The notes: generated by a model not told the origin, from the sequence alone. A stretch of 64,000 nucleotides of DNA from a virus (IMGVR_UViG_3300025168_015970:11056-75055); one strand, 5' to 3'; counted from the stretch's first letter, positions 22,314 to 57,534 are shown. Numbers and translations are program-made.

Positions 22314-22542
22314 CACAACGACGGACTACTCACCACTCGCGAGGTGGTTATGCTTATATGAAGCAGTAAATATTATTTCTGAAAAAGCAGAAAAAATGGG
22401 ACATAATAAGGATTGTTTAAAACCTATTCCTATAAACAAATATATAAGTGAGAGGTTTCATTCAGTATTGAAGGATATAGAATACGAATATAAACAAGAA
22501 CCAGAAACTATTAATAGTAGTCCCCGTATACATCATCGTTAG
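22303..22542 (+). CDS. Hypothetical protein
   Basis: Coupled ORF. Confidence 0.5.
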   Translation: MTNNTTTDYSPLARWLCLYEAVNIISEKAEKMGHNKDCLKPIPINKYISERFHSVLKDIEYEYKQEPETINSSPRIHHR

Positions 22543-23245
22543 AACCATAATCAAAATATGATTCCTGTTCGGTATCTAAGTCATTTATATAATCAGTTTC
22601 AATAGCAGTTAAAGGACCAACACCTGAAGTATCTGAAACCATAGTAGACTTAGCTTCAGCGTCCATACCTGGTAAGAAGGTATGGTCGTTTCTTCTGGCT
22701 TTTAATTTAAATACATAGTGCCCTTGTAATGGATTTATTTCATTAATCATCTCATCCATCCGTTCGGTGACTTCGAATATTTTACCGTTTTTACCGCCGG
22801 GTCGATCTATAGAACCATATTCAATTAATTGAAATGCATCTCCTGATTTAGGCATGGCTGCAGATACAGAACCAAACGTTGATGATAAATTTTCTTGAAA
22901 AGTACTAATATCAATTACAGCATCTATTTCATCGTCTGACACGAGACCATATTGAGAGTAAGTAAGAGAACCATCAGTCAAATTCATTAACATAACAAAT
23001 GTAGCTTTTGGATGGTATCCTTGATGAGTATTTTCTCCGTATACTTTATCGGTTGCACTTAACTCAAAATTCCGGGAATAATAATCTATCTCAGTACCAT
23101 ATAAGCGGATTTGTTCTTTCCACCAAACTTTATATGTCTGATCTCTCTCATTAGTACCGTTTAATTTATAATTAAAACGAGTAGTATTTTCTGCATCCTC
23201 ATAATACTTTATAGCACTAATAGTTGTTGTGAGAAAAGCTCCCAT
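22511..23245 (-). CDS. gp14: Neck protein (gp14-like)
   Basis: EQIRLYGTEIDYYSR, YGE, SQYGL..DE, P.sGD, IFEV motifs of the gp14 family. Confidence 0.75.
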   Translation of the reverse strand: MGAFLTTTISAIKYYEDAENTTRFNYKLNGTNERDQTYKVWWKEQIRLYGTEIDYYSRNFELSATDKVYGENTHQGYHPKATFVMLMNLTDGSLTYSQYGLVSDDEIDAVIDISTFQENLSSTFGSVSAAMPKSGDAFQLIEYGSIDRPGGKNGKIFEVTERMDEMINEINPLQGHYVFKLKARRNDHTFLPGMDAEAKSTMVSDTSGVGPLTAIETDYINDLDTEQESYFDYGSNDDVYGDYY

Positions 23246-23583
23246 TATTTTTTAATATAATATTTGTTATCAGCAATATAAAATGTTATACCAGTGTTAC
23301 CTAAATTACGAGAACCTCTTTTTTCAAGGTCTGTAATTTTAAATAGTTCTTTTATTATTTGTACTTCTTTATCACTTAACAAAAACATCCCAGACTCCAT
23401 TTTTTTAAGTTGTTTTAATTTATGTGGATAATTAGCTTCTGCTCTATGAACATCTGGTAATAGGTTCATCTTACCCCCTTTTCGCCCTTGTAAACCAGTA
23501 GATCCTTTGAAACGTCTACTATTTAACACATTTTTTGTCTTATGAGGCTGTCTAAGAAGTTCTAGAAATATCTTTTTAAACAT
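23245..23583 (-). CDS. Basic hypothetical protein
   Basis: TAAATA 6 nt upstream; coupled to gp14. Confidence 0.55.
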   Translation of the reverse strand: MFKKIFLELLRQPHKTKNVLNSRRFKGSTGLQGRKGGKMNLLPDVHRAEANYPHKLKQLKKMESGMFLLSDKEVQIIKELFKITDLEKRGSRNLGNTGITFYIADNKYYIKK

Positions 23584-23597
23584 TTTAATTATTTAAT

Positions 23598-23624
23598 AAA
23601 AAAAGCCCCCTGCAAGCAAGGGGC
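23598..23624 (-). terminator. Rho-independent terminator
   Basis: Minus strand GCCCCTTGC-TT-GCAGGGGGC then T7. Confidence 0.75.
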
Positions 23625-23652
23625 CCTTTAAAGGTATTGTTATATTTATCGG

Positions 23653-24615: not shown

Positions 24616-24616
24616 G

Positions 24617-24628: not shown

Positions 24629-26335
24629 GTGCCGAGGCAAAAAAAAGAAGATAAATTTTATTTAGGTAATAAAAACTTACCTAACGCTAATATGGAGTTC
24701 GAATGGACTCCTGAGATGGTAAAAGATCTCAAAAAAGCAAAACAAAATATTTTACACTTCGCTGAGAACTTTTTTTATATTGTAAATTTAGATCAAGGTA
24801 AAATAAAAATAGACTTATACCCTTGTCAGAAAAGAGTTTTACGTAGTTTAAGAGATAATAGATTTGTAGCTTGTCTTGCTTCAAGACAGACCGGTAAAAC
24901 TACAATGATGACAATCTACGCTCTTTGGATCGCATGCTTTCAACAAGATCAACGTATATTAATTGTAGCTAACAAAGAACAAACTGCTATTAATATATTT
25001 TCAAGAATAAGAACTGCTTACGAAAAATTACCTAACTTCTTAAAACCAGGAGTATTAGAATACGGCAAAACTTCTATGAAGTTAGCAAACGGTAGTAGTA
25101 TTGGAATCAGTACTACGAGTTCGGACGCTGGTCGTGGTGAATCTGTTAATGTTTTAATTCTAGATGAGCTTGCGTTCATCCCTAATAATCTAGTTGATAG
25201 TTTTTGGAAATCTGTTTACCCTATTATTTCAAGTTCAAAAAAATCTAAAATATTCGTTGCTTCAACCCCTAATGGGAGTAATAATTTATTTTTTCATTTG
25301 TACACTGATGCTATTAACGGGAAGAGCAATTGGAGAGGTGAGAAAATATTATGGGATGAAATTCCTGGGAGAGATGAAGAATGGAAACGAGATACTATAC
25401 AGTCGATAGGTAGTACAGAAGCCTTTGCGCAAGAGTTTGAATGCAAGTTTCTTGATACTGGCGACTCTTTTATTGATGAATCGTTTTACGCCAAGCTAAC
25501 AAGTGAGACAAAGGTACCAACTCATTTGTTTGATGATGGTTGTTATAGTGTTTGGGATGAACCAAATAAAGAACATTTATATACTATAGGTGTTGATGTT
25601 GCAGAAGGAGTTCAACAAAATTATAGCGCTATACAAGTATTAGATATTACTGACTTACAAAACATAACTCAAGTAGCAGAGTATGCTAGCAATGAAATTA
25701 ACCCATTTGAGTTTACTACTAAAGTAAGAGATATTTGTTATCATTGGGGAACCCCTCCTGTATGTATAGAAAGAAACAATTGTGGTGGTCAGGTTGTAGA
25801 TAATTTATATCACCAATACAATTACAAAAATATTGTTAATTATTCCCCTAAAGTTGGTCAAGTTAAATATGACAGGCTTGGTATTTATGCTCATACTAAT
25901 ACAAAATATAAAGGTATTACTAATATGAGATACTGGGTAAATGAACTTAAATGTGTTCATTTAAAATCTACAGCTGCAGTAGAAGAACTTAAGAATTTCG
26001 TAAGATATCCTAATGGTTCTTGGGCGGCCCAACCTGGGTTTGATTTTGATGACAGGGTTATGTCTTTAGTATGGGCCTTATTAATATTAGAAAATAGTGT
26101 AGTACAAAGATATTATAATGTATTAGAAATAGATGATAATCAACGACCTGCAAAGTTAGAGTTAGGAGCATATATAGATCAAAAGTTTAGTAATTTTCTA
26201 CAAGACTATAAAATGCAGAATATAGATGATTCATGGAATCCCGCGCCAGTTTACTTTGAAGACATAAATATTTTTGGCGACGGTGACCTAACTGATATGG
26301 ATTTATTAGAACAAGAAGGGTATGTTAAATTATGA
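24629..26335 (+). CDS. gp17: Terminase large subunit (gp17)
   Basis: SRQTGKT Walker A, LILDELAF Walker B, ASTPNG, QEFEC, GVDVAEG, DDRVM. Confidence 0.96.
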   Translation: MPRQKKEDKFYLGNKNLPNANMEFEWTPEMVKDLKKAKQNILHFAENFFYIVNLDQGKIKIDLYPCQKRVLRSLRDNRFVACLASRQTGKTTMMTIYALWIACFQQDQRILIVANKEQTAINIFSRIRTAYEKLPNFLKPGVLEYGKTSMKLANGSSIGISTTSSDAGRGESVNVLILDELAFIPNNLVDSFWKSVYPIISSSKKSKIFVASTPNGSNNLFFHLYTDAINGKSNWRGEKILWDEIPGRDEEWKRDTIQSIGSTEAFAQEFECKFLDTGDSFIDESFYAKLTSETKVPTHLFDDGCYSVWDEPNKEHLYTIGVDVAEGVQQNYSAIQVLDITDLQNITQVAEYASNEINPFEFTTKVRDICYHWGTPPVCIERNNCGGQVVDNLYHQYNYKNIVNYSPKVGQVKYDRLGIYAHTNTKYKGITNMRYWVNELKCVHLKSTAAVEELKNFVRYPNGSWAAQPGFDFDDRVMSLVWALLILENSVVQRYYNVLEIDDNQRPAKLELGAYIDQKFSNFLQDYKMQNIDDSWNPAPVYFEDINIFGDGDLTDMDLLEQEGYVKL

Positions 26336-26901
26336 ATCAAGCACCACAGAATAAAAATAGACAAGATAAATTTATTTTAGTTTTAAATGTACCAGAAGGT
26401 ATAAAAGAAATTACAGATAATGTAGATAGAAATACTAACCGTATACATGCTAATAGTTTGGAAATTAGTATTGCAGGTACTGTGACTCCATCTATTAGTG
26501 TACCAGAACAAACCTTACCATATGGTGCGCAAAGTATTAAAATAAGTTCACATGCTCGCCCGGCTTATGGGTCATTAAATTTACAATTTAGAATTGATAA
26601 CGAATATAAAAACTACTGGGCTATATTTAAATGGTTAGATGTAATTAATGATGTAAAGACTGGTACTGTTAATGCAGATGAAATTATTGCCTACCAAAAA
26701 CCAGGAACTGTGTTACCAATATATTCTTCCAATTTAACAGTTTATGGTTTAGATGAATATGATAATAGAAAAATTCAATGGGATTATATTGGAGCATTTC
26801 CAACCCAATTGTCTGAAATACAATGGGACTATAATAGTGAATCTGAAATTGCAGCAACCGCTACGTTTGAATTTACAAGACTAGAATCTAAATTAATTTA
26901 A
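26332..26901 (+). CDS. Tail-tube-family protein (gp3/gp19-like)
   Basis: YGSL...F.IDN.Y.NY..IF.W, GAFPT.L and ATF.F motifs. Confidence 0.7.
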   Translation: MNQAPQNKNRQDKFILVLNVPEGIKEITDNVDRNTNRIHANSLEISIAGTVTPSISVPEQTLPYGAQSIKISSHARPAYGSLNLQFRIDNEYKNYWAIFKWLDVINDVKTGTVNADEIIAYQKPGTVLPIYSSNLTVYGLDEYDNRKIQWDYIGAFPTQLSEIQWDYNSESEIAATATFEFTRLESKLI

Positions 26902-27561: not shown

Positions 27562-28422
27562 TTAACCCCAAAAGTAACTCATTGCAACGTTTGTCTTATA
27601 AGAACAGTCAGGCATTTTTTTAACAATTTTTTTAAATTCTTCTTCTGTAATATTTCCTTGCCTCCAAGATTCTCCTTCAATACAACCTATCATTGAGTTA
27701 GTTCTCTCCTGAATAGACTTTACATACATAGAAGCAGCAAACATCTCATCTGGATTACCAGTATCAAACCATGCGTAATTGCTATCTAATCGAGTATGAG
27801 TTAATTCTCCGTCATTTAAGTAACTCTTATTTAAATCTGTTATTTCTAATTCCCCTCTAGCTGATGGTTTTAATGCTCTTGCTCTCTCTCCTGCAGTATC
27901 ATCATAGAAGTAAATACCAGTAACTGCGTCATTACTGAGTGGAGAATCTGGCTTTTCTTCAATAGAAATTACTTTATCTGAATCATCTACTTTAATTACA
28001 CCATAATCTGATGGATTAGATACTCTGTAACTTACTACTCCAGCTCCATATTTTATATTAGGTTTCTTAATACCAGTGAAAATATTATCCCCTAAAATTA
28101 AACAAACATCATCTGAACCTTGCCATTTTTCTGCTATAATAAGAGCCTCAGCAATACCCTTTGGAGTTACTTGAACCTTGAAAGTAAAATTAATACCAAG
28201 ATAAGCCTTAATAGTACTAGTTTGATTAAAGAGACTACACAAGCTCGAATACGCCAAGCCGTTTGTTACAATCATTATATCAGTTATACCTAATTTTATT
28301 AAAGTAGTAAGCGGATAATAAATTGTAGGTTTATCATAAACCGGTAGTAGTTGTTTGGAAGTAGTTTTAGTACTCGGATATACTCGAGAGCCTGTACCCC
28401 CAGCTAAGATAATTCCCTTCAT
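27562..28422 (-). CDS. rmlA: Glucose-1-phosphate thymidylyltransferase
   Basis: GIILAGGTGSR, SKQLLPVYDKP, LGDN, EEKP, SARGELEITD, WFDTG. Confidence 0.95.
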   Translation of the reverse strand: MKGIILAGGTGSRVYPSTKTTSKQLLPVYDKPTIYYPLTTLIKLGITDIMIVTNGLAYSSLCSLFNQTSTIKAYLGINFTFKVQVTPKGIAEALIIAEKWQGSDDVCLILGDNIFTGIKKPNIKYGAGVVSYRVSNPSDYGVIKVDDSDKVISIEEKPDSPLSNDAVTGIYFYDDTAGERARALKPSARGELEITDLNKSYLNDGELTHTRLDSNYAWFDTGNPDEMFAASMYVKSIQERTNSMIGCIEGESWRQGNITEEEFKKIVKKMPDCSYKTNVAMSYFWG

Positions 28423-28505: not shown

Positions 28506-31109
28506 ATGAGTAGACGAACAATTCAATCACCAGGAGTAGAAATTAGGGAAATTGACTTATCCCAGCGTCCCGCAGCCGCACTAGGGACGAGCGTATTCAT
28601 TGCAGGATTCTCAAACCAAGGGCCTACAGATGAAATTTTCAACGTTGGTACCTTTGCAGAATTCGAAGAAATTTATGGAAGCCCTACAACCGCAGCTGAG
28701 AGATATTTTTATCACTCCGCTAAGCAAGTTTTCGAGAGTGATGCAAATGTTTATGCTTCTCGGTTACCGTATGGTTCAACAGCAGGTGATTACACTTATT
28801 CTGCTCTAACTTATCCAGTTGTCGGAGCAAAAACCTCAACTGTTTCTGCCTTATCAACAAACGTGGACGCTGGTGGTCTTGTCCTAAAAACTAACAGAAC
28901 TGAAACAGCTGTAGTTACATCAACTAATGTCGGTATTGAGATAATTTTAAAAGACAGTAATGATGAGTTTATTTATATTAACTACAGTGGTGGTAGTTTC
29001 ACTCCGACCATTGGCTTTCAAGGAGTTAGTGCAACGGCAGCTGTCCTAGCAGCAAACACAGAATTATGGCCATTAACTGCAACAGGTAATACATTAGTGT
29101 CTGGTCAATTTTATGCCTCTCTCACCGGTTTGAGCGGTCTTAATACCGGTACTACTGATTTAAGTTCTAGTAATTATTATGTTATTGGTCAGCCTACTTT
29201 AGTAGATTTAAATAAGGATGAATATAATGCTATTAACGAAGGTCAAATTACATGGAATAAATCCGGGAATGGTGGTGCTGATGCAGGATTTACAGGTGGT
29301 TCCACAGATCTAGCGAAAGCTGGTATAGTTATTTTAAATAAATCAAGTGTAACAACTAACGAAGGGTTTGAAGGGTATTATGTCGGTATTTCTGATAACT
29401 CTCATAGTAATCCTGCGACACCATTTGACGCCGTTAAACATGTCTATACTACAACATCAGCTGACGACAAACAGCCCGCTGATTTTACAACAATTCCAAA
29501 TTCGAGATTAGAATTTACCCTATCAGCCGCGGCTACACAAGATATAGATAGTACTAGTAGATCTCTTGAAGATTTATCATCATTTGAACTCGGTCCAGAA
29601 TTTATTGATTCTATTAACTTAGGGATATTTAAAGTACGAAACACTCCGTTTAATAAATCATCCGTTGAGCTAACTACTTTCTTAGCAGAAAAACATACAG
29701 GATCTTTAAACTCGGCCCGGAAGATACAAAATCAAAACGGTGGTTCAAAGTTACCATTTTTCATAGGTAGTGTTGAAGATAATTCTGCTAATATTAAAAT
29801 TCTAGTCAATGAGCATATTAGTGTTAGCAATACCGATACAGAGTGGACTGCTGCAGGAGGCGCTCCTAAAAAGTTTGTAAGAACGATTCACGATAATAAT
29901 ACTAATGCAGGTATTTTAAAGGCTCTTCGTACAGATATGACTGCTACTGGTCAAACAACTGCGCATAAAAATTATACTGGAACTCAAGGATTATTTCCAT
30001 TAGGTAATTATGGTACCTCTTTGAATACAACATCTAAGAATATTGGTCAAGTTGGTACAAAATTAGATAGAATATTTAATATAGCTTCAAATATTGATTT
30101 ATTTACAATTGACGTTACAGTAGAAGCTGGGTTAGGTACAATTCATGCTTTTGGTAAAGATAGTAATTATGATGATACCTCTTTCGTTAATATTGGTGAT
30201 AGTACCAATTCAACTGGTTTCTATACAACTGATGCTACTATGAAAGATCCCACTGGGGTATTCGCGGGGTACAGAGATGATTATAGAACTATTTTCAATG
30301 CATTTGAGACATTTGCACGTCAAACTAGAAAAGATCATATCTTTATCGCAGATGCTCTGAGACCATTAGTTGTTCAAGGAGCTAATCAGAAGGTACTTGA
30401 TGATAAAGCTAAAACATTTAGCCAACACGTCTATTGGCCGTTAAGGCATCAGTTCGGTACTGCTAATAGTAATTATGCTGCAACGTATGGTAACTGGGCA
30501 AAAGTCAATGATGGAGCTAGCGGTAAGCAAGTATGGATTCCGTTCTCTGGTGTCGTGGCTAAGATATATGCTAACAATGACGCAAACTTTGCTCCTTGGT
30601 TCGCTCCTGCTGGTTTTAATCGTGGGATTGTATCAGGAGTAAATGATATCGCAATAAGTCCAACTCAACGTCAAAGGGATCAATTATACAGGATCGCAAT
30701 TAACCCTGTTACACAATTCCCTGCAGAAGGTATTGTTGTATTTGGTCAGAAGACCTTACAAAGAAAACCAACGGCATTTGATCGAGTTAATGTTCGTCGA
30801 TTGTTCCTCGATTTAGAAAAAAGAACGCGGCAGACATTGAAATTCTTTGTCTTTGAACCTAATACGTTCTTAACAAGAAATAAGGTTGTTAATACATTAA
30901 CACCTATATTTGAAAACTGTAAGCAAACAGAAGGTGTTTATGATTACCTTATTGTTTGTGATGACAGGAATAATCCTGCTAGTGTTATTGACCAGAACGA
31001 GTTAAGAGTAGACATCTACTTAAAACCAGTTCGCGCTGCAGAGTTTATCTTAGTTAACTTCTACGCTGTTAACACAGATGTTAATTTCGAGGAGATAGTA
31101 GGTCAATAA
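28506..31109 (+). CDS. gp18: Contractile tail sheath protein (gp18)
   Basis: SPGVEIREIDLS, PWFAPAGFNRG, GQKTL, DRVNVRRLF, KPVRAAEFI. Confidence 0.96.
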   Translation: MSRRTIQSPGVEIREIDLSQRPAAALGTSVFIAGFSNQGPTDEIFNVGTFAEFEEIYGSPTTAAERYFYHSAKQVFESDANVYASRLPYGSTAGDYTYSALTYPVVGAKTSTVSALSTNVDAGGLVLKTNRTETAVVTSTNVGIEIILKDSNDEFIYINYSGGSFTPTIGFQGVSATAAVLAANTELWPLTATGNTLVSGQFYASLTGLSGLNTGTTDLSSSNYYVIGQPTLVDLNKDEYNAINEGQITWNKSGNGGADAGFTGGSTDLAKAGIVILNKSSVTTNEGFEGYYVGISDNSHSNPATPFDAVKHVYTTTSADDKQPADFTTIPNSRLEFTLSAAATQDIDSTSRSLEDLSSFELGPEFIDSINLGIFKVRNTPFNKSSVELTTFLAEKHTGSLNSARKIQNQNGGSKLPFFIGSVEDNSANIKILVNEHISVSNTDTEWTAAGGAPKKFVRTIHDNNTNAGILKALRTDMTATGQTTAHKNYTGTQGLFPLGNYGTSLNTTSKNIGQVGTKLDRIFNIASNIDLFTIDVTVEAGLGTIHAFGKDSNYDDTSFVNIGDSTNSTGFYTTDATMKDPTGVFAGYRDDYRTIFNAFETFARQTRKDHIFIADALRPLVVQGANQKVLDDKAKTFSQHVYWPLRHQFGTANSNYAATYGNWAKVNDGASGKQVWIPFSGVVAKIYANNDANFAPWFAPAGFNRGIVSGVNDIAISPTQRQRDQLYRIAINPVTQFPAEGIVVFGQKTLQRKPTAFDRVNVRRLFLDLEKRTRQTLKFFVFEPNTFLTRNKVVNTLTPIFENCKQTEGVYDYLIVCDDRNNPASVIDQNELRVDIYLKPVRAAEFILVNFYAVNTDVNFEEIVGQ

Positions 31110-31140: not shown

Positions 31141-31731
31141 ATGGCTGATATTAAACAAACAATTCAAGACTTTTATAAGGTAGCTCAAACGAGAGACTTT
31201 GCACGTGACTTTCAGTTTCGTGTATTAGACGTCTCTAACAAAGGTGTACCTGTTTTTACGGAAGACGACCTAGTGTACGCAACAACAGCAACACTTCCTG
31301 GAAAGCAAATCTCACCTAAAGAGGTTCCATATAACGGTTTTACCTTCCGTATCCCTGGTACGGTATCTTATAATAACAGTGCTGGGTTTACTATTGACTT
31401 CTATTGCGACGCTACAACTAATACTAGAGTTGCCATGGAGAACTGGATCACAGAAACATTTAATGATGAAACAACTACTGGTGATGGTGTTATTCACAAC
31501 AATAGCACCATTACTTTAGTACAACTTGATACTAAGTTTGAGCCATTACGTACATATAAATTGTTTGGTGTATTTCCAGTTAACAGCGGTGATATTAGTT
31601 ATTCTATGTCAGGTAGTGGAGAAGTTGCAACAACAACCATTACTATGGCTTATCAGTTCTTTAGAAGAGATAACGAATTAAACACAGCAGTCAATGCAAT
31701 TGGTAAATTAGCTGGTGCAGTATTAGGTTAA
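31141..31731 (+). CDS. gp19: Tail tube protein (gp19)
   Basis: Follows sheath; ATLPG, VPY.G, YKLFGVFP motifs. Confidence 0.85.
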   Translation: MADIKQTIQDFYKVAQTRDFARDFQFRVLDVSNKGVPVFTEDDLVYATTATLPGKQISPKEVPYNGFTFRIPGTVSYNNSAGFTIDFYCDATTNTRVAMENWITETFNDETTTGDGVIHNNSTITLVQLDTKFEPLRTYKLFGVFPVNSGDISYSMSGSGEVATTTITMAYQFFRRDNELNTAVNAIGKLAGAVLG

Positions 31732-47061: not shown

Positions 47062-49361
47062 CGATAGATTTAAATACAACTAACCCATTATCTTTTATTG
47101 AATGGAAAGCTTATTATGAAGATGTTTCTAGCGCTACTGAGCTACCTGTAATTTACAATAACTATCTTATTGAGTGGAAAAACCAAAAAGAGACAAATAC
47201 TAATTATAATAACGATTATACTAAAAACATTTACATACAATTTTTAAAGAATTTAAATTTATCAACTTTAGATACTAATGTACAGCGGTTTCTCGAGAGA
47301 ATAGATACCGATGATGTATATGAACTAGAATTATCAGTTCACTATTTTATTGAAATAATACAAAACCAATTAACTAATGTTCGAGATTTAAGAGAAGAGG
47401 TTAAGTTTTCTACATCAAAAAATAAACTTAAAACTTCAAAAGCAGGTATACAAAAATATTTAAAAAATTATATAGCTAGATTACTTAGTAGTAAGGAATT
47501 TGTAAAAGAAAATACTAACACCGCTATAGAAGATATTAACATACAAAAAATAGCGAACAATATAGAAATAAATTTAAAGAGTTATGTTTCTGATGAGTTT
47601 TTGTATAACATCCACACAATAGACAAAGATTTAATTTTAAGTGTTACCCGCAAGGTACTTAACGAAGTACCTAATGTTTTACAGGCAATATCAATAAACA
47701 AAGATGGTAAGAAACTAAAAATAGAAACCAACAATATATCAACTCCAGAAAGTATATTGAGCATTAATCAACCGTTTACAAATTTTGAAAGGTTACCTGG
47801 TAGGTACTTTAGAGGAGAAGAAAAAACATTAAAAAATTTAAAATTTACGTACGAAAAGGGATTAATAGAAAAATATTTAGCAAATGATTTATATCATGTA
47901 TCTGGTAATAAACAATCTGCAAAAGTAGAACAGCTGTTTAATAATACTAACCCTACAAATAGTTTAAATCAAAGATATAATCCGAATTTATACAACAAAC
48001 CTGTTAACATAAAAAGTACAGAAATTTACCCGTATCAATTATCCTTTAAAAATACTGGAACAACTAATTTTTATTCTTATGGGTTAACATTTAATATAGA
48101 TTTATCTGCGTTCAATGGAACAGATTATGTAGTTCCCAACCCTAATAAATATGAACCTGGTATTAAATGTGTTGGTTATATTAAAAATAGCAATACTGGA
48201 GAGATTCTTCGTAATATAAAAATAAAACAAAGAACTCCGCTTATTTTTAAAGCAAAAACAAACGAATACAAAAACAATGATCAAAGTGCTTCTATAGGTT
48301 TTTACAATAATAAAATATTACGAAATTATGGATATCAAAGTCAAGAAAATAGCTTAGAGTACTCTTCTACAGGTATTAACAAAAGAGAAGATAATATTAG
48401 TTTCTGGGAAGATGAAATTGGTCATATAGATTGGAAGAATACTGACACATACCCAATAAGCGTTTTAAACATATATCCTGAATCTCAAAGACTTACGGAT
48501 TTGTTGATAACTAACAAGACTGGCATCAAATTACGGAGTGACATATATGGTAATGAGTTTTATTTTATAAAGCCGGTATACCCAAAGAGATACGCAGGAA
48601 CCACATATATAAGCAGTACATCAGATTCAAGTACCTCAACTAGTTGTATAACAGCTGCAGAATATTATGATGGTTTGTTTTTTGAACCTTTACTGTCTGC
48701 AATATCTGCAGCTGAGTATATAGCTACAGGAACTTTGTATTCTAGTGTTACTGGTATGTATGATGAGTTTATAGTTAATGATTCTACATTATGTGATGTC
48801 GCAGGTACAGCAGAATCAGCAACATTCTTAGCTCCTCTAACAGACTTTTCGTGTTCTGATTTGCATAGTCAAGCTTTGTCTTGTGGTTCAGTTTCTGCAG
48901 TGTCTGCTGTTGATGGTGGGCCATTTGCTGGACACCCTGGAGTGGGTAGTGAACTAGTAACTCATTATTTTACGGAAACTACAATACCATATTTAACAAT
49001 TGATACTTCCGCTATATATACAAACTCTACTACTACATATGAAGCGTCAGCAACTAACGATCCAACAACAACCACTGTAAAATTGTTTGATCAACAGTTT
49101 ATCAGCGCCGGTGAAGTATTTGTTAGAAATATACATACTCAAACGGTAGATCCACTTTCAACAGCCTTTGCAACAGTGTTTAATAAACACACAACAGGTC
49201 TTACTAAAGCTAATATACTTACAACAAGTAATATATTAGATTTTGATATTATCGAAAATACAATTTATGTGCAAACGTCAGCAGAGACAGTAACAGAATT
49301 ATATGATTTTGTAGATGGTACATTTAAAAATAAAGCTAGTTCGAAATCCATAATAACGTAG
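47058..49361 (+). CDS. Large virion structural protein
   Basis: Coupled to the previous ORF; Ser/Thr/Cys-rich C-terminal third. Confidence 0.55.
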   Translation: MTIDLNTTNPLSFIEWKAYYEDVSSATELPVIYNNYLIEWKNQKETNTNYNNDYTKNIYIQFLKNLNLSTLDTNVQRFLERIDTDDVYELELSVHYFIEIIQNQLTNVRDLREEVKFSTSKNKLKTSKAGIQKYLKNYIARLLSSKEFVKENTNTAIEDINIQKIANNIEINLKSYVSDEFLYNIHTIDKDLILSVTRKVLNEVPNVLQAISINKDGKKLKIETNNISTPESILSINQPFTNFERLPGRYFRGEEKTLKNLKFTYEKGLIEKYLANDLYHVSGNKQSAKVEQLFNNTNPTNSLNQRYNPNLYNKPVNIKSTEIYPYQLSFKNTGTTNFYSYGLTFNIDLSAFNGTDYVVPNPNKYEPGIKCVGYIKNSNTGEILRNIKIKQRTPLIFKAKTNEYKNNDQSASIGFYNNKILRNYGYQSQENSLEYSSTGINKREDNISFWEDEIGHIDWKNTDTYPISVLNIYPESQRLTDLLITNKTGIKLRSDIYGNEFYFIKPVYPKRYAGTTYISSTSDSSTSTSCITAAEYYDGLFFEPLLSAISAAEYIATGTLYSSVTGMYDEFIVNDSTLCDVAGTAESATFLAPLTDFSCSDLHSQALSCGSVSAVSAVDGGPFAGHPGVGSELVTHYFTETTIPYLTIDTSAIYTNSTTTYEASATNDPTTTTVKLFDQQFISAGEVFVRNIHTQTVDPLSTAFATVFNKHTTGLTKANILTTSNILDFDIIENTIYVQTSAETVTELYDFVDGTFKNKASSKSIIT

Positions 49362-49373
49362 TAAATAATTTAT

Positions 49374-52100
49374 ATGTTCAGTACTAAACAATCAGACGTA
49401 TTTTACAACGACGAAACAAAAGAAATGTTTGTTTGTACTGTGAGCTCTCTCTCTGCTGATAGATGTGATGGTACCTCAGAAATTGTATATGGAGCTGTTC
49501 CTTTAATATACAAAATAGATAAAAACACTAATTATAAAAGTAGAGTATATCCTAAAGACTTGACATCATTTAGTTTGAGTTCTAATTCTGATCTATTTGC
49601 AGTAACCCCAACTTGCCCTGAAGGTACAAATTTTGATTCCATAACAAAACCTCTTATTAATTATAATAAAACTACATCAAGATATTCAGTAACATTCTTA
49701 GGAAGATATACTTCTGACTCAGACGGTCTTGGTCTTAATAATTTTATATTTGAAGATGTAAATTCATATTTCCATTTACTTGATTCAAAAATTTATATCC
49801 CCAAAGATAAATTTACTGATGATCAATTTACATTTGAATCTGGTCATTTAAATTCTGATTTATATATTGTAGGTAATACTGTTCGGAATGGTAAACCATC
49901 ATGGTTCAACCCTAGTACCGGAGCTGAGATAGAAAGATCTCCTGACTACTCAATCGGACCTATGCACGTACAATCTACAAGTAGTTTAGGTTTTAATTTA
50001 GTACTTGACCAAACAAACACTACTATAGACGCCATTACAGGAGATAAATTTTACCCAATGTTGTACAGTGGAGGATTTATAACATATAATCCAAAATACG
50101 TTGCATTTGATCCAGAGTATACAATACGGGTAGATTTTAGAGCAAGATCGTTTAATGTACCAAGTCCAACTGCATATGGTGGAACTCAATCTGTAGGCGT
50201 TAGCGCTACGAGATGGGTACAACAATGGGCCCCTGCAGGAGCAGGAGAAGGGTTCTGTCTTTCGTTCTTTAGAAACCCAGAAAGAAATTCGTTTGTAATT
50301 CCTAATGGTATAGGTTCTACTCTAGGTTATGCTATAGCAGATTTTAGCCCTAATGAGGTAGCTGGTACAGCGCATTCGACAGTTGGATTGTTCAAGCGAA
50401 AGAATTGGAACCCAAATACTGGGTATACGGGTAGCCTTCCCTCCGGGGCAACTATTGATATGGGGATTGGTAATGTAGGTCAGCAAGGAGAAGGTTCTCC
50501 TGCAGATAGTTTCCTAGGGGTTGGTTTTGATATTGGTGGTAACTTTGCATATACATCAGAAGATAAAACTGGATGGTATGACGGTACTACTGCTACAATT
50601 TCTCCATGCTCGGTAGGTATAAGAGGTAGTAAGTTTTACGATACTCAGATACTCACATCTGTAGACATGAGCGCTACAGCAGGTGCAGCAGTACCAATGC
50701 ATACTTCTGCAATGTCAGCTCAGTTTGTAGATTATAGAGTTGATTTGACTAATAGAGGTACGAAAGTAACAATTTACAATAAACTTACTAGTGAAACAGA
50801 TTATAATACAATATTAGAATTAAGGCTGAATGCCGAAGTTGGAGTAAGTAATACTACAGGAGAAAAATATAACGCATGGAGAGGTTTTCAAAATAACCAA
50901 CAAATAAAAAATGAAGAATTACCTCCTCTGAATGTAGGTTTATCTTTTACTACAAGTGATAAAGCTAGTCAATTTGAACTCCATAAGTTCGAAGTTACAG
51001 GAGTTAAAGTACATAACCCATGGGCTAGTGTTCTTCCAAAACTTAGAGAAGAAACAGTAACTGAAAAAATAGATTATTTACAAGAGTCTTCAAAAAATTT
51101 ACGCAAGAAATTAATTAATGTTGATATTGGAGATACTAATGAGTATAAAGCTGGAACAAGCACAGTAGATATAGAAATGGTGATTCCTGCAAAATCGAGA
51201 ATAGCGAAAGCGGTCTCTGAAATATCAGACCCTGAAATCACATTATGTGATGATAATAATCCAGAAATAATTGAACAGGATGTAGATATAAGGATTACAA
51301 AACTAAACCCTAATCAAATTGATAAAACAATTGAAGTCGCTGAACTTGGAGGTAACCTTAAAATCCCAGGCTCAGTAACGGCTATTAAAAAGGATGGAAG
51401 AAATATTACAGGAGATACAATAACAGTACCGGAACCGATTATTATTAATCCACCAGTTAATCTTATTACAGAATTAACTGCTCACTGTCGTTCAAGATTT
51501 GATAAGAACATTTTCGATCGTGAAAGTGATATACCAGCTTTTGTGTGGTTGAGAAGTAATAAAATAACAATTAATAATAAAGATTATTATCTCTTTATAG
51601 ATAGTCTTGTATATCATGGTACGGGTACAAAATCAAACCAAGGGTGGAAAAAAGATAAAAGTACATCAACTATTTTATTCAAGCCTGAGAATAGAAAAAA
51701 AATAGAGAATAGATTTATACAATTAGTAACTACTCCGGGCGTTGAGTACAAGAAATACTGGGAAATACAACAAAACATGGGTGGGATAGGAATAACCCGG
51801 GGCTGGAAAAACACGGGAGGTAAATACGGTACCGACATAGATTTAACAAAATTTTATACTAAAGATGTAGATAATTGGGATTTTGCTCCGTTAGGGGATG
51901 AGTTGGATAGGCACGGGGTCGACGAGAAGAGATTAAAGGAGTTGGGAACCACTTTCTTCGGTACTCCAAAAGGCATAACATGTATTGAGATTGAATATGA
52001 AAATGATGAGTATGGTGTCTATGTCTCAGAGGCTGGTACAAATAAAATTAAATTCTCATACACCGGTATCGCCGAAACTGGTGAGGGAGGAGGCGCGTAA
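49374..52100 (+). CDS. Virion protein with L-type (legume) lectin-like domain
   Basis: GEGFCLSF, G..LGY, FLGVGFD and VGLSFT pattern of L-type lectins. Confidence 0.65.
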   Translation: MFSTKQSDVFYNDETKEMFVCTVSSLSADRCDGTSEIVYGAVPLIYKIDKNTNYKSRVYPKDLTSFSLSSNSDLFAVTPTCPEGTNFDSITKPLINYNKTTSRYSVTFLGRYTSDSDGLGLNNFIFEDVNSYFHLLDSKIYIPKDKFTDDQFTFESGHLNSDLYIVGNTVRNGKPSWFNPSTGAEIERSPDYSIGPMHVQSTSSLGFNLVLDQTNTTIDAITGDKFYPMLYSGGFITYNPKYVAFDPEYTIRVDFRARSFNVPSPTAYGGTQSVGVSATRWVQQWAPAGAGEGFCLSFFRNPERNSFVIPNGIGSTLGYAIADFSPNEVAGTAHSTVGLFKRKNWNPNTGYTGSLPSGATIDMGIGNVGQQGEGSPADSFLGVGFDIGGNFAYTSEDKTGWYDGTTATISPCSVGIRGSKFYDTQILTSVDMSATAGAAVPMHTSAMSAQFVDYRVDLTNRGTKVTIYNKLTSETDYNTILELRLNAEVGVSNTTGEKYNAWRGFQNNQQIKNEELPPLNVGLSFTTSDKASQFELHKFEVTGVKVHNPWASVLPKLREETVTEKIDYLQESSKNLRKKLINVDIGDTNEYKAGTSTVDIEMVIPAKSRIAKAVSEISDPEITLCDDNNPEIIEQDVDIRITKLNPNQIDKTIEVAELGGNLKIPGSVTAIKKDGRNITGDTITVPEPIIINPPVNLITELTAHCRSRFDKNIFDRESDIPAFVWLRSNKITINNKDYYLFIDSLVYHGTGTKSNQGWKKDKSTSTILFKPENRKKIENRFIQLVTTPGVEYKKYWEIQQNMGGIGITRGWKNTGGKYGTDIDLTKFYTKDVDNWDFAPLGDELDRHGVDEKRLKELGTTFFGTPKGITCIEIEYENDEYGVYVSEAGTNKIKFSYTGIAETGEGGGA

Positions 52101-53185
52101 TGAATACCTTTACGTACACATTAACAGCAACCCCAGCAGCCGAAGGCGGTACAAAGACTAAATCTCAGTCTTTAACAGGTACCACTGATGTAACATTTTC
52201 CTTATCTGGATTAAACACTTTATACGAAGTTAACAATGACTATAAAATAAATAAGGTTGTTGTTGATTTTGATGACGGTAAGGAATTAGTTTTAACCAGA
52301 TCTTTATCAGGTACAACTATTGCATCTTTATCTAGTGAAGCCTTTAATCATGTAATACAAACAGACTTTACCGACCAAGCAAAAAGACATGTATACTTTA
52401 CCCTTTACAGAGACGATCAAAAAGTAGATGTAATAGATCTGAAGTTTACAATGTTTAAACCCCCTATTACTACTTACGAAGATGTAAACTTATTAAAAAC
52501 TGACTACTTTAATAATGATGTAGATAATGAAAAATTACTATTAACATTTATTAATAAAAACCCTGAAGTATTAGGTTTAAGTTTATTAGATATTAATGTA
52601 CCAGGGAAAGCTGGTTATGATCCATCTCTTACAACTAGTCAAAGTACTAGTACCAATTCATTTACTGTAGGGTTTACAACTGATTATATACATACTCACG
52701 CATCAGAATCTAATACAGGTAATACAATTCAAGTAAGTCTAGGAGATACTATTAACCCTAACACAGGTTTGCCTAAAGATAATGGAAAAATCTCTTTTAA
52801 ATATAGAACAAGAGCCCCGGAGACTGCAGAATCAGGTAATAGTAATGCAGTAGTAAATTTACCTAACAACCCTCATTTATTTTATGTACCATTAACTGCT
52901 AATTCCAGCTTTATACACTTAAGCGGTTTCTTGACTTGGAATTGTAGTGATATAATGAAGGATATAGATTTAACTACTAAGACAATAACGATACCTCTTA
53001 TAGATATTACAGGTACTAAGACTTCATTAACTGATTATTATTTTACTAATGTTAATACAGGGGTCGGTACATCAATGACAGGGTTAGCATCTGGAGGATA
53101 TTTTTACTTAGATTTATATGATGTTACAGGATGTGACTCAATAACAACAACAACAAGTACAATTACAGCGTTTGTAAATTACTAA
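52100..53185 (+). CDS. Virion structural protein
   Basis: Thr/Ser-rich beta protein in the structural operon. Confidence 0.55.
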   Translation: MNTFTYTLTATPAAEGGTKTKSQSLTGTTDVTFSLSGLNTLYEVNNDYKINKVVVDFDDGKELVLTRSLSGTTIASLSSEAFNHVIQTDFTDQAKRHVYFTLYRDDQKVDVIDLKFTMFKPPITTYEDVNLLKTDYFNNDVDNEKLLLTFINKNPEVLGLSLLDINVPGKAGYDPSLTTSQSTSTNSFTVGFTTDYIHTHASESNTGNTIQVSLGDTINPNTGLPKDNGKISFKYRTRAPETAESGNSNAVVNLPNNPHLFYVPLTANSSFIHLSGFLTWNCSDIMKDIDLTTKTITIPLIDITGTKTSLTDYYFTNVNTGVGTSMTGLASGGYFYLDLYDVTGCDSITTTTSTITAFVNY

Positions 53186-53202
53186 TTGAAATAAATAATT
53201 AT

Positions 53203-54066
53203 ATGGCCATAGAAGACGAAATTATTAATATATCAGATATTGATGTTGGTACTGAAATACTAAACAACGATAAGCTCATTATTGAGACCAATAACGGGAC
53301 CAAACTACTAGCTTTTAAAGACTTAGTTATTGGTGAAGAGAATATTACGTTTAAAGATAAACTAGTGCAAGGTGCCCGGTCAGGTAAGTCTACTATGGAT
53401 ACTGATCTAGTAGAAGGTTATAATATATTAACATCAGATACTACAGCTGGCCATGTAACGAAGTATTCTGATATTAGCGGTACTGTAGAACTAGGGAGAT
53501 TTAATTATATTGCAGCAACAGAATTTGCTGGATTATCTACTACAATAACAGCTAACCAACTTGCTATAGGTGACGCAAATATCGAGATCGCGAAGATACA
53601 GTCGCTCCTGGCTAGTACTGATAATGATGCATTAAATACTATTTCCTTAATTACTAAGCCTGTAAACTTTATAGTTACTCAAAATGGAGCTGGTACTTTC
53701 GGTCCCTCTCCGGTCTTCACTGACAAGACTCTTGATCCTACAACCACAAACTCTAACGTATCATTTGCAAACAGTCCGTTCAAAATCACATACCCATCAG
53801 CAGCATCCGGTACGTATGCCGATGGTTTTGTTTTATTTATATTAGAAGCCTTTCTCGGTGGTCAGGGGACATCCGCGGACATGAAAATATATTTACTACT
53901 CGACGGTGATACAGTAGCTGAGGCAGATTTTTTTGGAGCCGGTGTCTCGAAAGCTACTATAAATAAAGCTTTATATGTTAAAAGAGGACAGACAGTAACA
54001 CTTGCTTTTAATAAGGATGCAGCCTTAGAAGATGGTTCTAACTTTTCAGGTATAAGATTCTCATAA
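53203..54066 (+). CDS. Fibre-like protein with coiled coil and C1q/TNF-like C-terminal head
   Basis: G.Y, LYVKRGQTVTL and SNFSG terminal pattern. Confidence 0.5.
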   Translation: MAIEDEIINISDIDVGTEILNNDKLIIETNNGTKLLAFKDLVIGEENITFKDKLVQGARSGKSTMDTDLVEGYNILTSDTTAGHVTKYSDISGTVELGRFNYIAATEFAGLSTTITANQLAIGDANIEIAKIQSLLASTDNDALNTISLITKPVNFIVTQNGAGTFGPSPVFTDKTLDPTTTNSNVSFANSPFKITYPSAASGTYADGFVLFILEAFLGGQGTSADMKIYLLLDGDTVAEADFFGAGVSKATINKALYVKRGQTVTLAFNKDAALEDGSNFSGIRFS

Positions 54067-54069
54067 ATA

Positions 54070-57000
54070 ATGAAAGTTAATTCTATAGATACAGAAAATA
54101 TTGTACCAGTTGAATATAGCCATACTCACGATGCTAAAATTCTGTTTCGTAAATATAGAGAGAACTTCGATTTTGGTTTGACAGTTGATCAATATTATTT
54201 TAATCAAGATGCAAAAGACAAAAAAACTAATTACAATACTCAATATACTCTTACTGAGTTAAACTCTTTATCTACAATAGCAGAATTAGATATTCCATTT
54301 ACTGAATCAGTTGTAAATGTATTTTCTTCTCCGGTACAACACGGAGGTAAATATTTAAAAACATTTAATACATTAAGTGCGAACTATTTAAGTAGTATGT
54401 TTGTTGCCTCGTCGGAATTTGACCCTATTAGTAGTGAATTTTTATTTACTTTTACATTAACATCAGTTCCTGCTACTGCTAAATCAAGTACTCTTAGCGG
54501 TAGTATACCTACTAACAAACAAGGTAGTGAAGATAGAATTTTAGTAAGTACTGTTTCTGGTGCTACTACATATTATCTAGTAGCGTTATCAGCAACCAAT
54601 ACTGTTGCAAAATGGACATCAACAGATAGTTTAAAAGAACAATGTTATTTTAGATATGGTATCGCAGATAATAAAATTACTCTATTAAACCCAGCATCTG
54701 GGTTTGCCTCAAAAATATGTATAAATAGTGGTCTATATACAGACCTTGATGATGTTTTAAGCTTGTCTACTTCTCCTGGTTCATTTACTACTGCTGCAGC
54801 TTTAAGTACAGCTAGTTTTGATATTACTAGAAACGTATTAACTAAAGCTTTTAAAACTATACCTAATAGTTATACTAAATATATTTCCTCATATAATACA
54901 GATACAGTTGACTTAAACACATCTACTGTTGTAGACCATATAAGTAATAATTATTTTGTATTTACTAATAATTACAATTTTTATGATAGTAAGACTAGTA
55001 GCAATGAGAATAAAATAAAAGCGCATGCTGATTTCTTCCCGTTAAAGAACCAAGCTACTTTGCACGAATATTATTCAGAGAATAATCATTTTAACTCTCA
55101 ACCTGCTCATTTAAATCGAGTTTACGAAAAAGTAAACGCTGGAACAAACCAGCAACGCGGTTATGATAAAATAGGTTTATCTTATAATATCGGTACATAC
55201 GACATAGTATTTAAACCAAACAAACTTACATATTTTACTACCCCTGACTCAATGTCTCCTTATACAGTTTTAAATATAAAAGATGCAAAAATAGAAAATC
55301 TAGGAACTGTTGCAGGAGATAATCCATTAATGTCGGATAAAGTTTTTAAGCGCCGTGAGGATGTAAAAAATAATTCGTACAGTGATAATACTGATCCGGT
55401 CTATTTATGTAGTTGGTTATCTGGTAATGATATAGGAGATACAAGATGGGTAGATAGATATTATAATGCTTATGTTTCTAATTTTGCAAACGCGCTTTCT
55501 GGTACATCTTTTTATAATGTTGTAACTGCTGCAGGAGCTGAATCTACTGAAACATTTGATGTATCTTCTAGCTTAACTTTTGAACCTAATAATGATTATA
55601 TTTTCTATCATATAGGTAGTAATGATTATCAAAATTTATTTAAAGCATATAATACAGTTTATAATGTTGCATCAGGAGTGGAGTATAAAAATTTTAAAGG
55701 AGTACCTACAACCCCTAACAAAGTAAAAGAAGAAGATGAATTAATTTTAAATGGAGAGAATTTCGGTAAATTTAATACTGATATTACAGGAGATTTTAGT
55801 ACTAGCTTCTGGTTATACAATACAGATAATACCCAACCATTTGGTTACCAAATCGCAGGTAATTATTTTGAAGAAGGGTTTGGCATTTTTAATACTGATC
55901 TAGTTACTCCTAATATTATTCTTCCAGTAGAAAATATAGACTCTGGACTAACTAGTAAATTATTATTCCTTAATAATGACTTTGAGATATATGACGAAGT
56001 TATTGTCATGGATGGTCCTACAGAAATAGAAATACTAGGTATTGGACGTAAAGATAATTTTTCTGAATTTTATGTGTTAGGTAGTAATTATATTATATAT
56101 GTTTATAATGCGAATAATAATTTAATCGGTCAGATTGATAATTTAAAAGATAATACATCTACAATAGATGACTTCGAAGTTGGAGAGGATAAGCTGCATG
56201 TATTGTTTAATCCAATTCAATCTAACCCCAACTGCTTTACCTATAACTTTAAAAATAATACAACCAGCGGCGCGGTATCTAGTACGTATGTTGATAAAAT
56301 AGGAGAAAAGGGCAAAGTAGTTGAAACAAGCTCAGGTCATACTTTTTATTCTGTAGATTCAAAAACCGGTTTTGGTAATGAAATGTCTTTTAATAATTCT
56401 AGTGAGGCATATGCAGTGAGACAAAGTAATAAATCTGCAATAGGAGATACTCGTAATTATTTACAAAAAATATCCCCTAGCAATACTCTTGATTATGATA
56501 ATAATAATAACCTAATAAAATCTGGTTTAAATTTAGAATCTAAAATTAACGGAGTACAGATAGATGATGATAACAATACAATTGTATTACATGATAATAA
56601 TATTATCTCTATCCTAGACAGTAATCGTATTTTGAAAAGGACAAGAGAATTTTGTCAGTTAGAAAATTATCCATTCCAGCAATCATATCTAGATATGATA
56701 TATGATTTTGAAGACGGAGTATATAAAAAATATATTCTTTTTGTTCAAGAGTATAATGACGGGTTCCGGTTAACAAAAATTAATGATAAATTAAAAATTA
56801 TCTCTACCAAGAAATTTAAAGACCTTAATCTTGCAAGTTTAAAATTAACTAAATCTATTACTTCATTTTATTATCTCAGGAAGGTTGGCGCGAACAAAAA
56901 TAGATTAAAAGTTTTATTAAAAACTAAACCTCAATTCTCTTCTTCTGGGGTAATACCAAGAACAAAGACTGAAATTGACTTTGATTATAGCCAATTAAAC

Positions 57001-57534
57001 CCAGGTTACAACCATTTCTTTGTTAATGTATCTGTACGGAAAGGTTATATGGAATTATATGTTAATAGTAAACGTTACAGTAAAGTAGAATTTCCTGCAG
57101 GGGTATTTGCTTTAGATAATGTTTTAGGAACAGGTACTTATATTGGTGCTGTAAGTACTCCGTTCTACTTAACTCTTGCTAATAGATTATTACAACCGAA
57201 GAAGTACTTTATTAAGAATGCTAAAATAAAGAGTTTTAAAATGTATAATAAAGTAATGACATACTTTGATATGTTAGCTCATTACAATTATCACTTTGAA
57301 GATAAAAATTTAATCTGGTCTTATCCAATCGGGCAACGCACATATGTAGATACAATTGATAAGTTAATGAAGTTTAACTACCCAGAAAAAATTACTAATA
57401 ACTATAAAGTTGAAATCGAAAATACTGGCATTACAGACGATAAACTCAAAGACAAGCTTAAGGATAGAATTACTGAAGAGTTACAGAAAATAACTCCATA
57501 TTTTGATGAGGTAAAAGATATTGTAATATCTTAA
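54070..57534 (+). CDS. Large virion protein with LamG-like domain
   Basis: FSTSFWL ... YNHF...LYVN...YIG...IKSFKMYN LamG-like elements. Confidence 0.55.
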   Translation: MKVNSIDTENIVPVEYSHTHDAKILFRKYRENFDFGLTVDQYYFNQDAKDKKTNYNTQYTLTELNSLSTIAELDIPFTESVVNVFSSPVQHGGKYLKTFNTLSANYLSSMFVASSEFDPISSEFLFTFTLTSVPATAKSSTLSGSIPTNKQGSEDRILVSTVSGATTYYLVALSATNTVAKWTSTDSLKEQCYFRYGIADNKITLLNPASGFASKICINSGLYTDLDDVLSLSTSPGSFTTAAALSTASFDITRNVLTKAFKTIPNSYTKYISSYNTDTVDLNTSTVVDHISNNYFVFTNNYNFYDSKTSSNENKIKAHADFFPLKNQATLHEYYSENNHFNSQPAHLNRVYEKVNAGTNQQRGYDKIGLSYNIGTYDIVFKPNKLTYFTTPDSMSPYTVLNIKDAKIENLGTVAGDNPLMSDKVFKRREDVKNNSYSDNTDPVYLCSWLSGNDIGDTRWVDRYYNAYVSNFANALSGTSFYNVVTAAGAESTETFDVSSSLTFEPNNDYIFYHIGSNDYQNLFKAYNTVYNVASGVEYKNFKGVPTTPNKVKEEDELILNGENFGKFNTDITGDFSTSFWLYNTDNTQPFGYQIAGNYFEEGFGIFNTDLVTPNIILPVENIDSGLTSKLLFLNNDFEIYDEVIVMDGPTEIEILGIGRKDNFSEFYVLGSNYIIYVYNANNNLIGQIDNLKDNTSTIDDFEVGEDKLHVLFNPIQSNPNCFTYNFKNNTTSGAVSSTYVDKIGEKGKVVETSSGHTFYSVDSKTGFGNEMSFNNSSEAYAVRQSNKSAIGDTRNYLQKISPSNTLDYDNNNNLIKSGLNLESKINGVQIDDDNNTIVLHDNNIISILDSNRILKRTREFCQLENYPFQQSYLDMIYDFEDGVYKKYILFVQEYNDGFRLTKINDKLKIISTKKFKDLNLASLKLTKSITSFYYLRKVGANKNRLKVLLKTKPQFSSSGVIPRTKTEIDFDYSQLNPGYNHFFVNVSVRKGYMELYVNSKRYSKVEFPAGVFALDNVLGTGTYIGAVSTPFYLTLANRLLQPKKYFIKNAKIKSFKMYNKVMTYFDMLAHYNYHFEDKNLIWSYPIGQRTYVDTIDKLMKFNYPEKITNNYKVEIENTGITDDKLKDKLKDRITEELQKITPYFDEVKDIVIS

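Follow-up and report, generated by a model that had tools for sequence, protein, structure and literature searches.

A clade-wide, order-specific Ser/Thr tripeptide in peripheral tail, baseplate and neck proteins of uncultured marine T4-like phages

Our analysis of a 64,000-nucleotide stretch of viral DNA (IMGVR_UViG_3300025168_015970, bases 11056-75055 of a 75,055-bp contig; GC content ~32%), hereafter the window, revealed a marked over-representation of the tripeptide [L/V/M]-[S/T]-[A/G] in virion proteins of a T4-like phage. The tripeptide is a clade-wide, order-specific signature of peripheral tail, baseplate and neck proteins and not of the whole virion. A sequence-only reading of the same DNA had proposed it as a candidate sequon, i.e. 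the acceptor signal of a phage-encoded system that glycosylates the virion. In our assessment the motif may well reflect protein architecture rather than a modification, an interpretation to which we give slightly less than an even chance. Sequence alone cannot decide between a structural signature and a sugar-attachment signal, and the evidence on both is set out below.

Expected counts per protein were obtained from 500 shuffles, with ~90 open reading frames (ORFs) tested, and all 729 class triplets of a reduced amino acid alphabet were scanned. In the distal tail set, consisting of the six proteins encoded within window positions 44176-57534, [LIVM][ST][AG] occurs 56 times where 21.0 sites were expected (z 8.1) and ranks first of the 729 class triplets. 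A broad structural set contains 92 sites vs 47 expected (z 7.0). For the non-structural remainder the counts are 46 vs 37 (z 1.5) and the replication enzymes have no excess. The five other possible orders of the same three residue classes reach a z of at most 2.9 in the triplet scan. The 56 distal tail sites also exceed the first-order (dipeptide) expectation of 34.6, and shuffling within windows of 15 and 30 residues still gave z values of 5.4-5.6 for the proteins of 961 and 361 amino acids (aa). The enrichment thus holds after correction for composition by full shuffles, by dipeptide expectation and by local windows. Local composition heterogeneity is ruled out as its source by the window shuffles together with the lack of excess for the other class orders. 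A motif at the DNA level is likewise ruled out, since the codons used at the sites are diverse and the signal therefore lies at the protein level.

The most over-represented exact tripeptide is LSA (10 vs 1.4 expected, p 2e-6). At position 1 of the motif, L is enriched 4.0 fold, V 3.2 fold, M 5 fold and I 1.6 fold, Ala is also raised (10 vs 4.3), and aromatic residues show no enrichment. The centre favours S (4.0 fold) and T (2.3 fold), and position 3 favours A (4.2 fold) and G (2.2 fold) and no other residue. Overall the order of preference is L > V > M >> I, then S > T, then A > G. A helix N-cap motif is ruled out by the lack of enrichment for Asp and Asn at the central position. Three further exact tripeptides, namely AGT (10 vs 1.5), NTG (10 vs 2.5) and ASG (7 vs 1.2), are over-represented in the distal tail proteins and look like turn motifs, while GSP, DGY, [ST][GAS]S and [ST]GS are not enriched in the tail proteins of this genome. 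The Bacteroidota motif D-[ST]-[ALIVMT] and N-x-S/T are also three-residue Ser/Thr sequons, but neither is enriched here: D[ST][ALIVMT] was found 15 times in the distal tail proteins vs 20.5 expected, and D occurs once at position 1 of X-[ST]-[AG] vs 6.1 expected. N-x-[ST] (x not Pro), one of eight patterns tested, is in fact depleted in the distal tail proteins (46 vs 72.5, z -3.65). This depletion holds under local-window shuffles and leaves N[ST], [ST]N, N..[ST] and the non-structural proteins unaffected; the orthologues in a related genome (G002) contain 45 such sites vs 59 expected.

The carriers of the motif within the window are listed here by position, with observed vs expected site counts.

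22511-23245, minus strand: gp14-like neck protein (head closure Hc2, PHROG 460); 4 vs 0.9, z 3.3
28806-29796, plus strand: insertion domains of the tail sheath, ~residues 100-430 of the 867-aa protein (gene 28506-31109); 7 vs 2.7, z 2.7, p 0.019
44176-47061, plus strand: 961-aa protein, directly after the gp6-like wedge gene; 17-18 sites, 17 vs 5.1, z 5.6
47058-49361, plus strand: 767-aa distal tail protein, with LSAISA and VSAVSA; 9 vs 2.9, z 3.6
49374-52100, plus strand: 908-aa distal tail protein, weak excess; 7 vs 4.0, z 1.6
52100-53185, plus strand: 361-aa distal tail protein, densest motif load; 9 vs 1.9, z 5.4
54070-57534, plus strand: 1154-aa distal tail or fibre protein, moderate excess; 8 vs 3.8, z 2.1

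Every tripeptide named in the sequence-only reading was recovered. The gp14-like protein contains ISA, LSA, VSA and LTA, and the sheath insertion (residues 113-339) contains two VSA and one each of LTA, VSG, LTG, LSG and LSA. Five LSA and three VSA are present in the 961-aa protein, LSAISA and VSAVSA in the 767-aa protein, ten [LIVM][ST][AG] in the 361-aa protein, and two LSA, three LSG and one VSG in the 1154-aa protein. In the sheath the excess is confined to the insertion: the conserved C-terminal part, which forms the core, has 2 sites vs 1.9 expected, and the value for the whole protein (8 vs 4.9, z 1.4) is not significant. Taken singly, the small proteins (gp14-like, gp15-like and a 77-aa ORF) rest on 2-5 sites each.

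No motif excess was found in the major capsid protein, portal, gp13-like adaptor, tail tube, tape measure, gp6, gp25, terminase or replication enzymes of this genome and its relatives; the tube, for example, has 0 sites vs 1.0 expected, and in the relative G001 the major capsid protein has 4 vs 3.2 and the portal 1 vs 1.5. The motif-bearing proteins are mutually unrelated, as all-against-all BLASTP gave no matches and hhalign aligned the 361-aa and 961-aa families with a probability of 0.3%. The motif occurs in at least five mutually non-homologous families, all of them peripheral. The earlier proposal of a motif recurring across virion proteins stands with respect to unrelated structural proteins, but it applies only to a peripheral tail and neck subset. 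With these empty comparisons and with site contexts that differ, a long hidden repeat unit or paralogy among the tail proteins is ruled out, and no internal repeats were found in the motif-bearing tail proteins.

The window encodes T4-type virion proteins (large terminase, tail sheath, two tube-like proteins, gp6-like and gp25-like baseplate wedge proteins and the gp14-like neck protein) and T4-type replication proteins (family-B DNA polymerase, UvsX, gp41-like helicase, gp32 and clamp loader). No close cultured phage was found, with megablast returning no match, and the gp6-like protein has just 24% identity to its cyanophage counterparts. Syntenic relatives in IMG/VR (G001, G002, G006, G010 and G012) are 116-132 kb in length and rated ~60% complete. 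Another relative, G009, is complete at 200,819 bp and has terminal repeats, so that the contig represents about one third (~37%) of a genome of ~200 kb. Homologues of the tail proteins are plentiful in Tara and other marine metagenomes. The lineage is one of uncultured, marine and widespread T4-like phages with genomes of ~200 kb.

In these relatives the motif remains in excess in the same protein families, at identities of 36-84%, and it persists in orthologues as distant as 33-37% identity. The same triplet heads the ranking of all 729 classes in the distal tail proteins of both G012 (47 vs 15.8, z 7.7) and G009 (36 vs 16.6, z 4.7). The 361-aa protein was compared with 64 homologues, which average a z of 4.7 (minimum 2.4), with LTG25, LSG274 and ITA355 being near-invariant, and 51 homologues of the 961-aa protein contain 5-23 sites where 3-6 were expected. 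Orthologues of the 767-aa protein have z values of 1.0 to 4.2, those of the 1154-aa protein 1.9 to 3.9 and those of the gp14-like protein 3.0-3.9; the orthologue of the 908-aa protein in G012 has 8 sites vs 2.4 (z 3.7). Further enriched proteins are encoded in relatives by genes outside the window, namely a gp15-like sheath stabiliser, a 1165-aa protein and an unassigned protein of 159-180 aa. The gene of the latter lies between the gp15-like and portal genes (G001 L018:11375-11905, minus strand; also in G002 and G012), and its product contains 5-8 sites vs 1.3-1.8 expected, at positions that differ between the G001 and G002 orthologues.

Most sites appear at conserved positions within each family. 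A sequence of the 961-aa family has on average 13.6 sites, 10.2 of them in conserved alignment columns; for the 361-aa family the figures are 8.7 and 7.7. Lineage-specific inserts show no enrichment (19 vs 13.7, z 1.6). The excess therefore consists mainly of inherited positions within each family, with no ongoing accumulation. Several sites are near-invariant at the class level, and S and T, A and G, and L and V exchange freely at conserved sites. Motif columns form no conserved island (entropy z +0.13) and are no more conserved than their flanks or the whole protein; Ser/Thr is retained at 0.79 of motif sites vs 0.66 elsewhere (p ~0.1).

Structural information comes from AlphaFold2 (AF2) models of two proteins, both of medium confidence (mean predicted local distance difference test score, pLDDT, of 70 and 64). 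For the 361-aa protein the model and Foldseek indicate an N-terminal Calx-beta-like sandwich. The model of the 961-aa protein suggests a PKD domain and an immunoglobulin (Ig)-like array, which make up its first half, followed by a helical region and more sheet; the N-terminal PKD domain was also detected by Pfam, and Foldseek matched Ig-like arrays.

Comparison with other phages placed the excess in context. The structural proteins of T4, including all fibres and Hoc, contain ~77 sites where ~72 were expected (a hand sum), i.e. ~1.1 fold, with 1 vs 0.4 in gp14 and one site in gp15. A z of ~0 for the T4 fibres and baseplate rules out that the excess is a universal property of T4-like tail proteins. 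In the 5195-aa gp7 of cyanophage P-SSM2 we counted 54 sites vs 35 (1.5 fold), in a gp7-like ORF of a related marine virus 48 vs 33, and in gp064 of Flavobacterium phage immuto 23 vs 8.1. The latter protein (L072:598-2238; NC_055915 128874-130514) has 546 aa and is built from tandem ~85-aa Ig-like repeats with three fixed [LIV][ST][AG] sites each; its N-terminus carries four consecutive cysteines. Judging from the repeat sites of immuto gp064 and the excess in P-SSM2 gp7, this class of tripeptide can mark Ig-like repeat domains. The present clade resembles these phages in that the same class is over-represented in peripheral beta-sandwich virion proteins of marine T4-like phages. It differs from immuto gp064, where the sites are fixed within repeats and predominantly of the form I/V-S/T-G, in having no detectable repeat and a dominance of L-S-A. 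The non-repeat proteins of the present clade are at the top of the observed range.

If the motif reflects architecture, the proteins that carry it would be largely small Ig-like, PKD-like and Calx-beta-like sandwiches and hairpins. A buried aliphatic residue, followed by a hydroxyl residue and a small residue, would recur at strand ends or turns of such folds, and each family would then have inherited its own set of sites. We lean towards this structural interpretation because the sites are inherited with ordinary conservation, because new inserts lack the excess and because turn-like tripeptides are co-enriched. It is further suggested by the beta-sandwich folds and the Ig-like repeat precedent, and by the lack of enrichment in capsid, portal, tube, tape measure and gp6. 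The fold would then be the cause of the excess, the beta-sandwich nature itself being visible in the predicted models of two proteins. Several results weigh against such an explanation. Besides the one PKD domain, no Ig-like Pfam family was detected even at E = 10. In the two AF2 models the motif Ser/Thr are found at strand ends, in strand interiors, in coil and at one helix N-cap, and they do not lie near strand C-ends significantly more often than other Ser/Thr do (8/23 vs 48/204, p 0.17), so that the strand C-cap is unsupported as the sole structural context. The preferences L > V >> I, S > T and A > G are odd for beta structure, since I, V and T are the residues preferred in strands and G the one preferred in tight turns. 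The excess of 2.7-4.8 fold is also larger than in the non-repeat controls (T4 ~1.1 fold, P-SSM2 gp7 1.5 fold). Finally, the gp14-like and gp15-like proteins have 4-5 sites vs ~1 expected throughout the clade, where their T4 counterparts, with common core folds, have one each.

The main alternative draws on the sugar and modification genes of the contig, which are listed here together with their strand and context.

3399-4631, plus strand: 410-aa GT-B-type glycosyltransferase, between the gp46/47-like nuclease genes and the DNA polymerase gene
10119-10820, plus strand: 233-aa Glyco_tranf_2_5 glycosyltransferase, in a uvsX-queC-gat-glycosyltransferase-gp41 run; kept in G001 and G002
16564-17475, plus strand: RmlD-like reductase in a replication-gene run; 51 bits, cut-off 224
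17465-18469, plus strand: RmlB dTDP-glucose 4,6-dehydratase in a replication-gene run; TIGR01181, 322 bits, cut-off 365
27562-28422, minus strand: RmlA-like glucose-1-phosphate thymidylyltransferase; Pfam NTP_transferase 1e-50, TIGR01207 288 bits, cut-off 361
59691-61511, minus strand: variable sugar island directly downstream of the tail module, with GT25-like, weak GT2-like and HldE domain II genes
59691-60401, minus strand: GT25-like gene, with TATAAATA at -26
60391-61011, minus strand: GT2-like gene, weak match
61008-61511, minus strand: HldE domain II adenylyltransferase; TIGR02199, 177 bits, cut-off 181.5
L001:1837-2673, upstream of the window: glycosyltransferase-like gene

The sequence-only reading had credited this genome with nucleoside diphosphate (NDP)-rhamnose synthesis, an HldE-like nucleotidyltransferase and four glycosyltransferases (GTs). 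RmlA, RmlB, an RmlD-like reductase and HldE domain II are indeed encoded and the GT-like genes number at least five in the contig, but no RmlC was found in the ORFs scanned. The RmlA-like gene lies on the opposite strand within the tail cluster, between the terminase and tube-like genes and the sheath gene, and a perfect match to the T4 late-promoter sequence TATAAATA is positioned 9 nt 5' of its ATG, as a sequence match only. The gene was detected in 8/8 relatives (G001, G002, G006, G009, G010, G011, G012 and G013) with 61-78% identity, beside the sheath gene also in G001 and G002; none of the eight lacked it, so that a comparison of co-loss had no case among them. Orthologues of RmlB and the RmlD-like protein are present in G001 and G002. 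The 410-aa GT has weak Pfam matches to Glyco_trans_1_4 and 1_2, clusters with viral proteins named 'glycosyl transferases group 1', shares 24-25% identity with actinophage glycosyltransferases and is kept in G001 and G002. The three GTs shared with these two relatives, as well as RmlB and the RmlD-like gene, lie in replication-gene runs without the late-promoter motif. Neither G001 nor G002 has the GT25-like and GT2-like genes of the island; both carry GT2 genes of another kind elsewhere and keep the motif excess. A GmhA-like SIS protein encoded upstream of the window is a weak match (43 bits vs a cut-off of 209), and neither a heptose kinase nor a phosphatase was found in the 75-kb contig, i.e. 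in ~37% of the genome.

If [L/V]-[S/T]-[A/G] is an acceptor signal for O-glycosylation, a phage GT active in the cytoplasm during late infection would read it on proteins of the tail, baseplate and neck, a possibility that we consider real but doubtful. The glycan would be a 6-deoxyhexose (rhamnose-type) or heptose-containing one made by the phage NDP-sugar enzymes, and the tail would be coated but not the head. The motif has a sharp, ordered consensus whose centre is enriched for hydroxyl residues alone, and it ranks first in three divergent genomes (our own, G012 and G009). That it is found in at least five non-homologous peripheral families, and that within the sheath its excess is limited to the outer insertion, would be expected of a surface signal, as would the free exchange of S/T, A/G and L/V at conserved sites, the heterogeneous structural contexts and the un-beta-like residue preferences. 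The neck proteins carry it and those of T4 do not, and T4 has neither a motif excess nor GT1 or GT2 genes. An RmlA gene that lies in the tail cluster behind a perfect late-promoter match and is conserved in all eight relatives checked, and at least five GT-like genes, some of them in a variable island beside the tail genes, point in the same direction. Against this, the major capsid protein and tail tube show no enrichment, and these are the acceptors in the only well-described phage case known to us. New exposed inserts gain no motif, and the sites have no extra conservation. Replication operons that lack late promoters house the three conserved GTs together with RmlB and the RmlD-like gene, and two relatives keep the motif without having the tail-adjacent GT25-like and GT2-like genes. 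No GT resembles a known protein O-glycosyltransferase; comparisons to solved structures and named families gave nothing useful. On balance it is conceivable, though rather improbable, that the clade runs its own O-glycosylation with an undescribed sequon and a rhamnose-type glycan on outward-facing tail, baseplate and neck proteins but not on the head, with RmlA co-expressed late and variable GT islands diversifying the glycan.

Known systems offer partial parallels. Virions of mycobacteriophages are reportedly O-glycosylated by phage-encoded glycosyltransferases (Freeman et al. 2023, Cell Host Microbe; mentioned in PMC11256854). The acceptors there are reported to be subunits of the capsid and tail tube, and the GT genes to be placed among the structural genes. 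The present phage is similar in being a tailed phage with its own GTs and sugar genes and with candidate Ser/Thr acceptors on virion proteins. It differs in that capsid and tube lack the motif, the sites are spread over tail, baseplate and neck, and the conserved GTs are located in replication operons. In flagellins of Campylobacter, Aeromonas and Pseudomonas many Ser/Thr are O-glycosylated in the cytoplasm before assembly, with hydrophobic residues upstream, and the rhamnose-linked glycan of P. aeruginosa a-type flagellin shows that a deoxyhexose can be the linking sugar. Hydrophobic residues ahead of the acceptor Ser/Thr would be the only context shared with this system; the target here is a phage tail, and no Maf-type or FgtA-type enzyme was detected. 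A literature search for virion glycosylation in marine phages or for an [L/V]-[S/T]-[A/G] sequon found nothing relevant.

The GTs may also serve another purpose. T4 DNA contains glucosylated hydroxymethylcytosine (glucosyl-hmC), which is made by phage glycosyltransferases. Glycan hypermodification of viral DNA by phage glycosyltransferases has been described (bioRxiv 10.1101/2023.12.21.572611). In our phage, queC, a stand-alone amidotransferase gene (gat) and the GT2_5-like GT gene lie between uvsX and the gp41 helicase gene at 8782-10820 of the window, and queE-like and folE genes are found upstream of the window at L001:4488-6550. Together queC, gat, queE and folE look like a set for 7-deazaguanine DNA modification, maybe coupled to the glycosyltransferase, and no DpdA/TGT-type transglycosylase was seen in the 75-kb contig. 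Because one GT is encoded beside queC and gat, with folE and queE elsewhere on the contig, the placement of GTs among replication genes would fit DNA hypermodification; remodelling of the host surface would fit it as well. DNA hypermodification would account for the GTs but not for the tripeptide excess.

Three explanations that involve neither architecture nor glycosylation appear less probable still. The motif might be a recognition tag of another kind, i.e. a site for a different Ser/Thr modification (phosphorylation, acylation or ADP-ribosylation), or the place where an assembly chaperone or a decoration protein specific to this clade docks. The sharpness, the order and the restriction to peripheral tail and neck proteins fit such a tag equally, and it needs no GTs, whose genomic context points elsewhere; we nevertheless regard it as unlikely, as we identified neither an enzyme nor a partner for it and the sites show no extra conservation. 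Protease cleavage sites are a far less probable option. The pattern [L/V/A]-x-[A/G] is reminiscent of two cleavage signals, namely the -3/-1 rule that applies to signal peptidase I and the (V/L)-x-A|S sites cut by assemblin-type prohead proteases, and the raised Ala at position 1 is in line with this. However, the centre is strictly S/T, which those proteases do not require, the sites are scattered in large folded tail proteins that are assembled outside the head while head proteins show no enrichment, and ten to eighteen cuts per protein would destroy the protein. As for chance or a composition artefact, the small proteins do rest on only 2-5 sites among ~90 ORFs tested. For the pooled set the enrichment statistics are beyond doubt and chance is effectively refuted, given the pooled z of 8, the first rank among the class triplets, its survival of the dipeptide and local-window controls, its replication in related genomes at 36-57% identity and the lack of enrichment for other class orders.

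Two further features of the tail cluster complete its description.

26332-26901: tail-tube (gp19-like) paralogue 1, directly after the terminase gene
31141-31731: tail-tube (gp19-like) paralogue 2, after the sheath gene

Many late genes, i.e. those for TerL, tube, tape measure, gp25 and the 908-, 287- and 1154-aa proteins, have TAAATA 6-17 nt 5' of the start codon, and TATAAT-like sequences are found instead 5' of many replication genes.

If the tripeptide is structural, it is a warning that, in peripheral phage proteins, the excess of a short Ser/Thr tripeptide can attain a z of 8 and persist throughout a clade with no sign of extra constraint, and such excesses are therefore not readable as sequons without chemistry. 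If it is a sequon, a protein-glycosylation system would for the first time be described in a phage whose hosts are marine and probably Gram-negative, and its acceptor motif would be simple and searchable. Some of the unexplained GT and NDP-sugar 'auxiliary' genes of ocean phages would then have a function, and a coat of sugar on the tail could alter how the phage adsorbs, how stable it is and how it fares against grazing or enzymatic attack in seawater.

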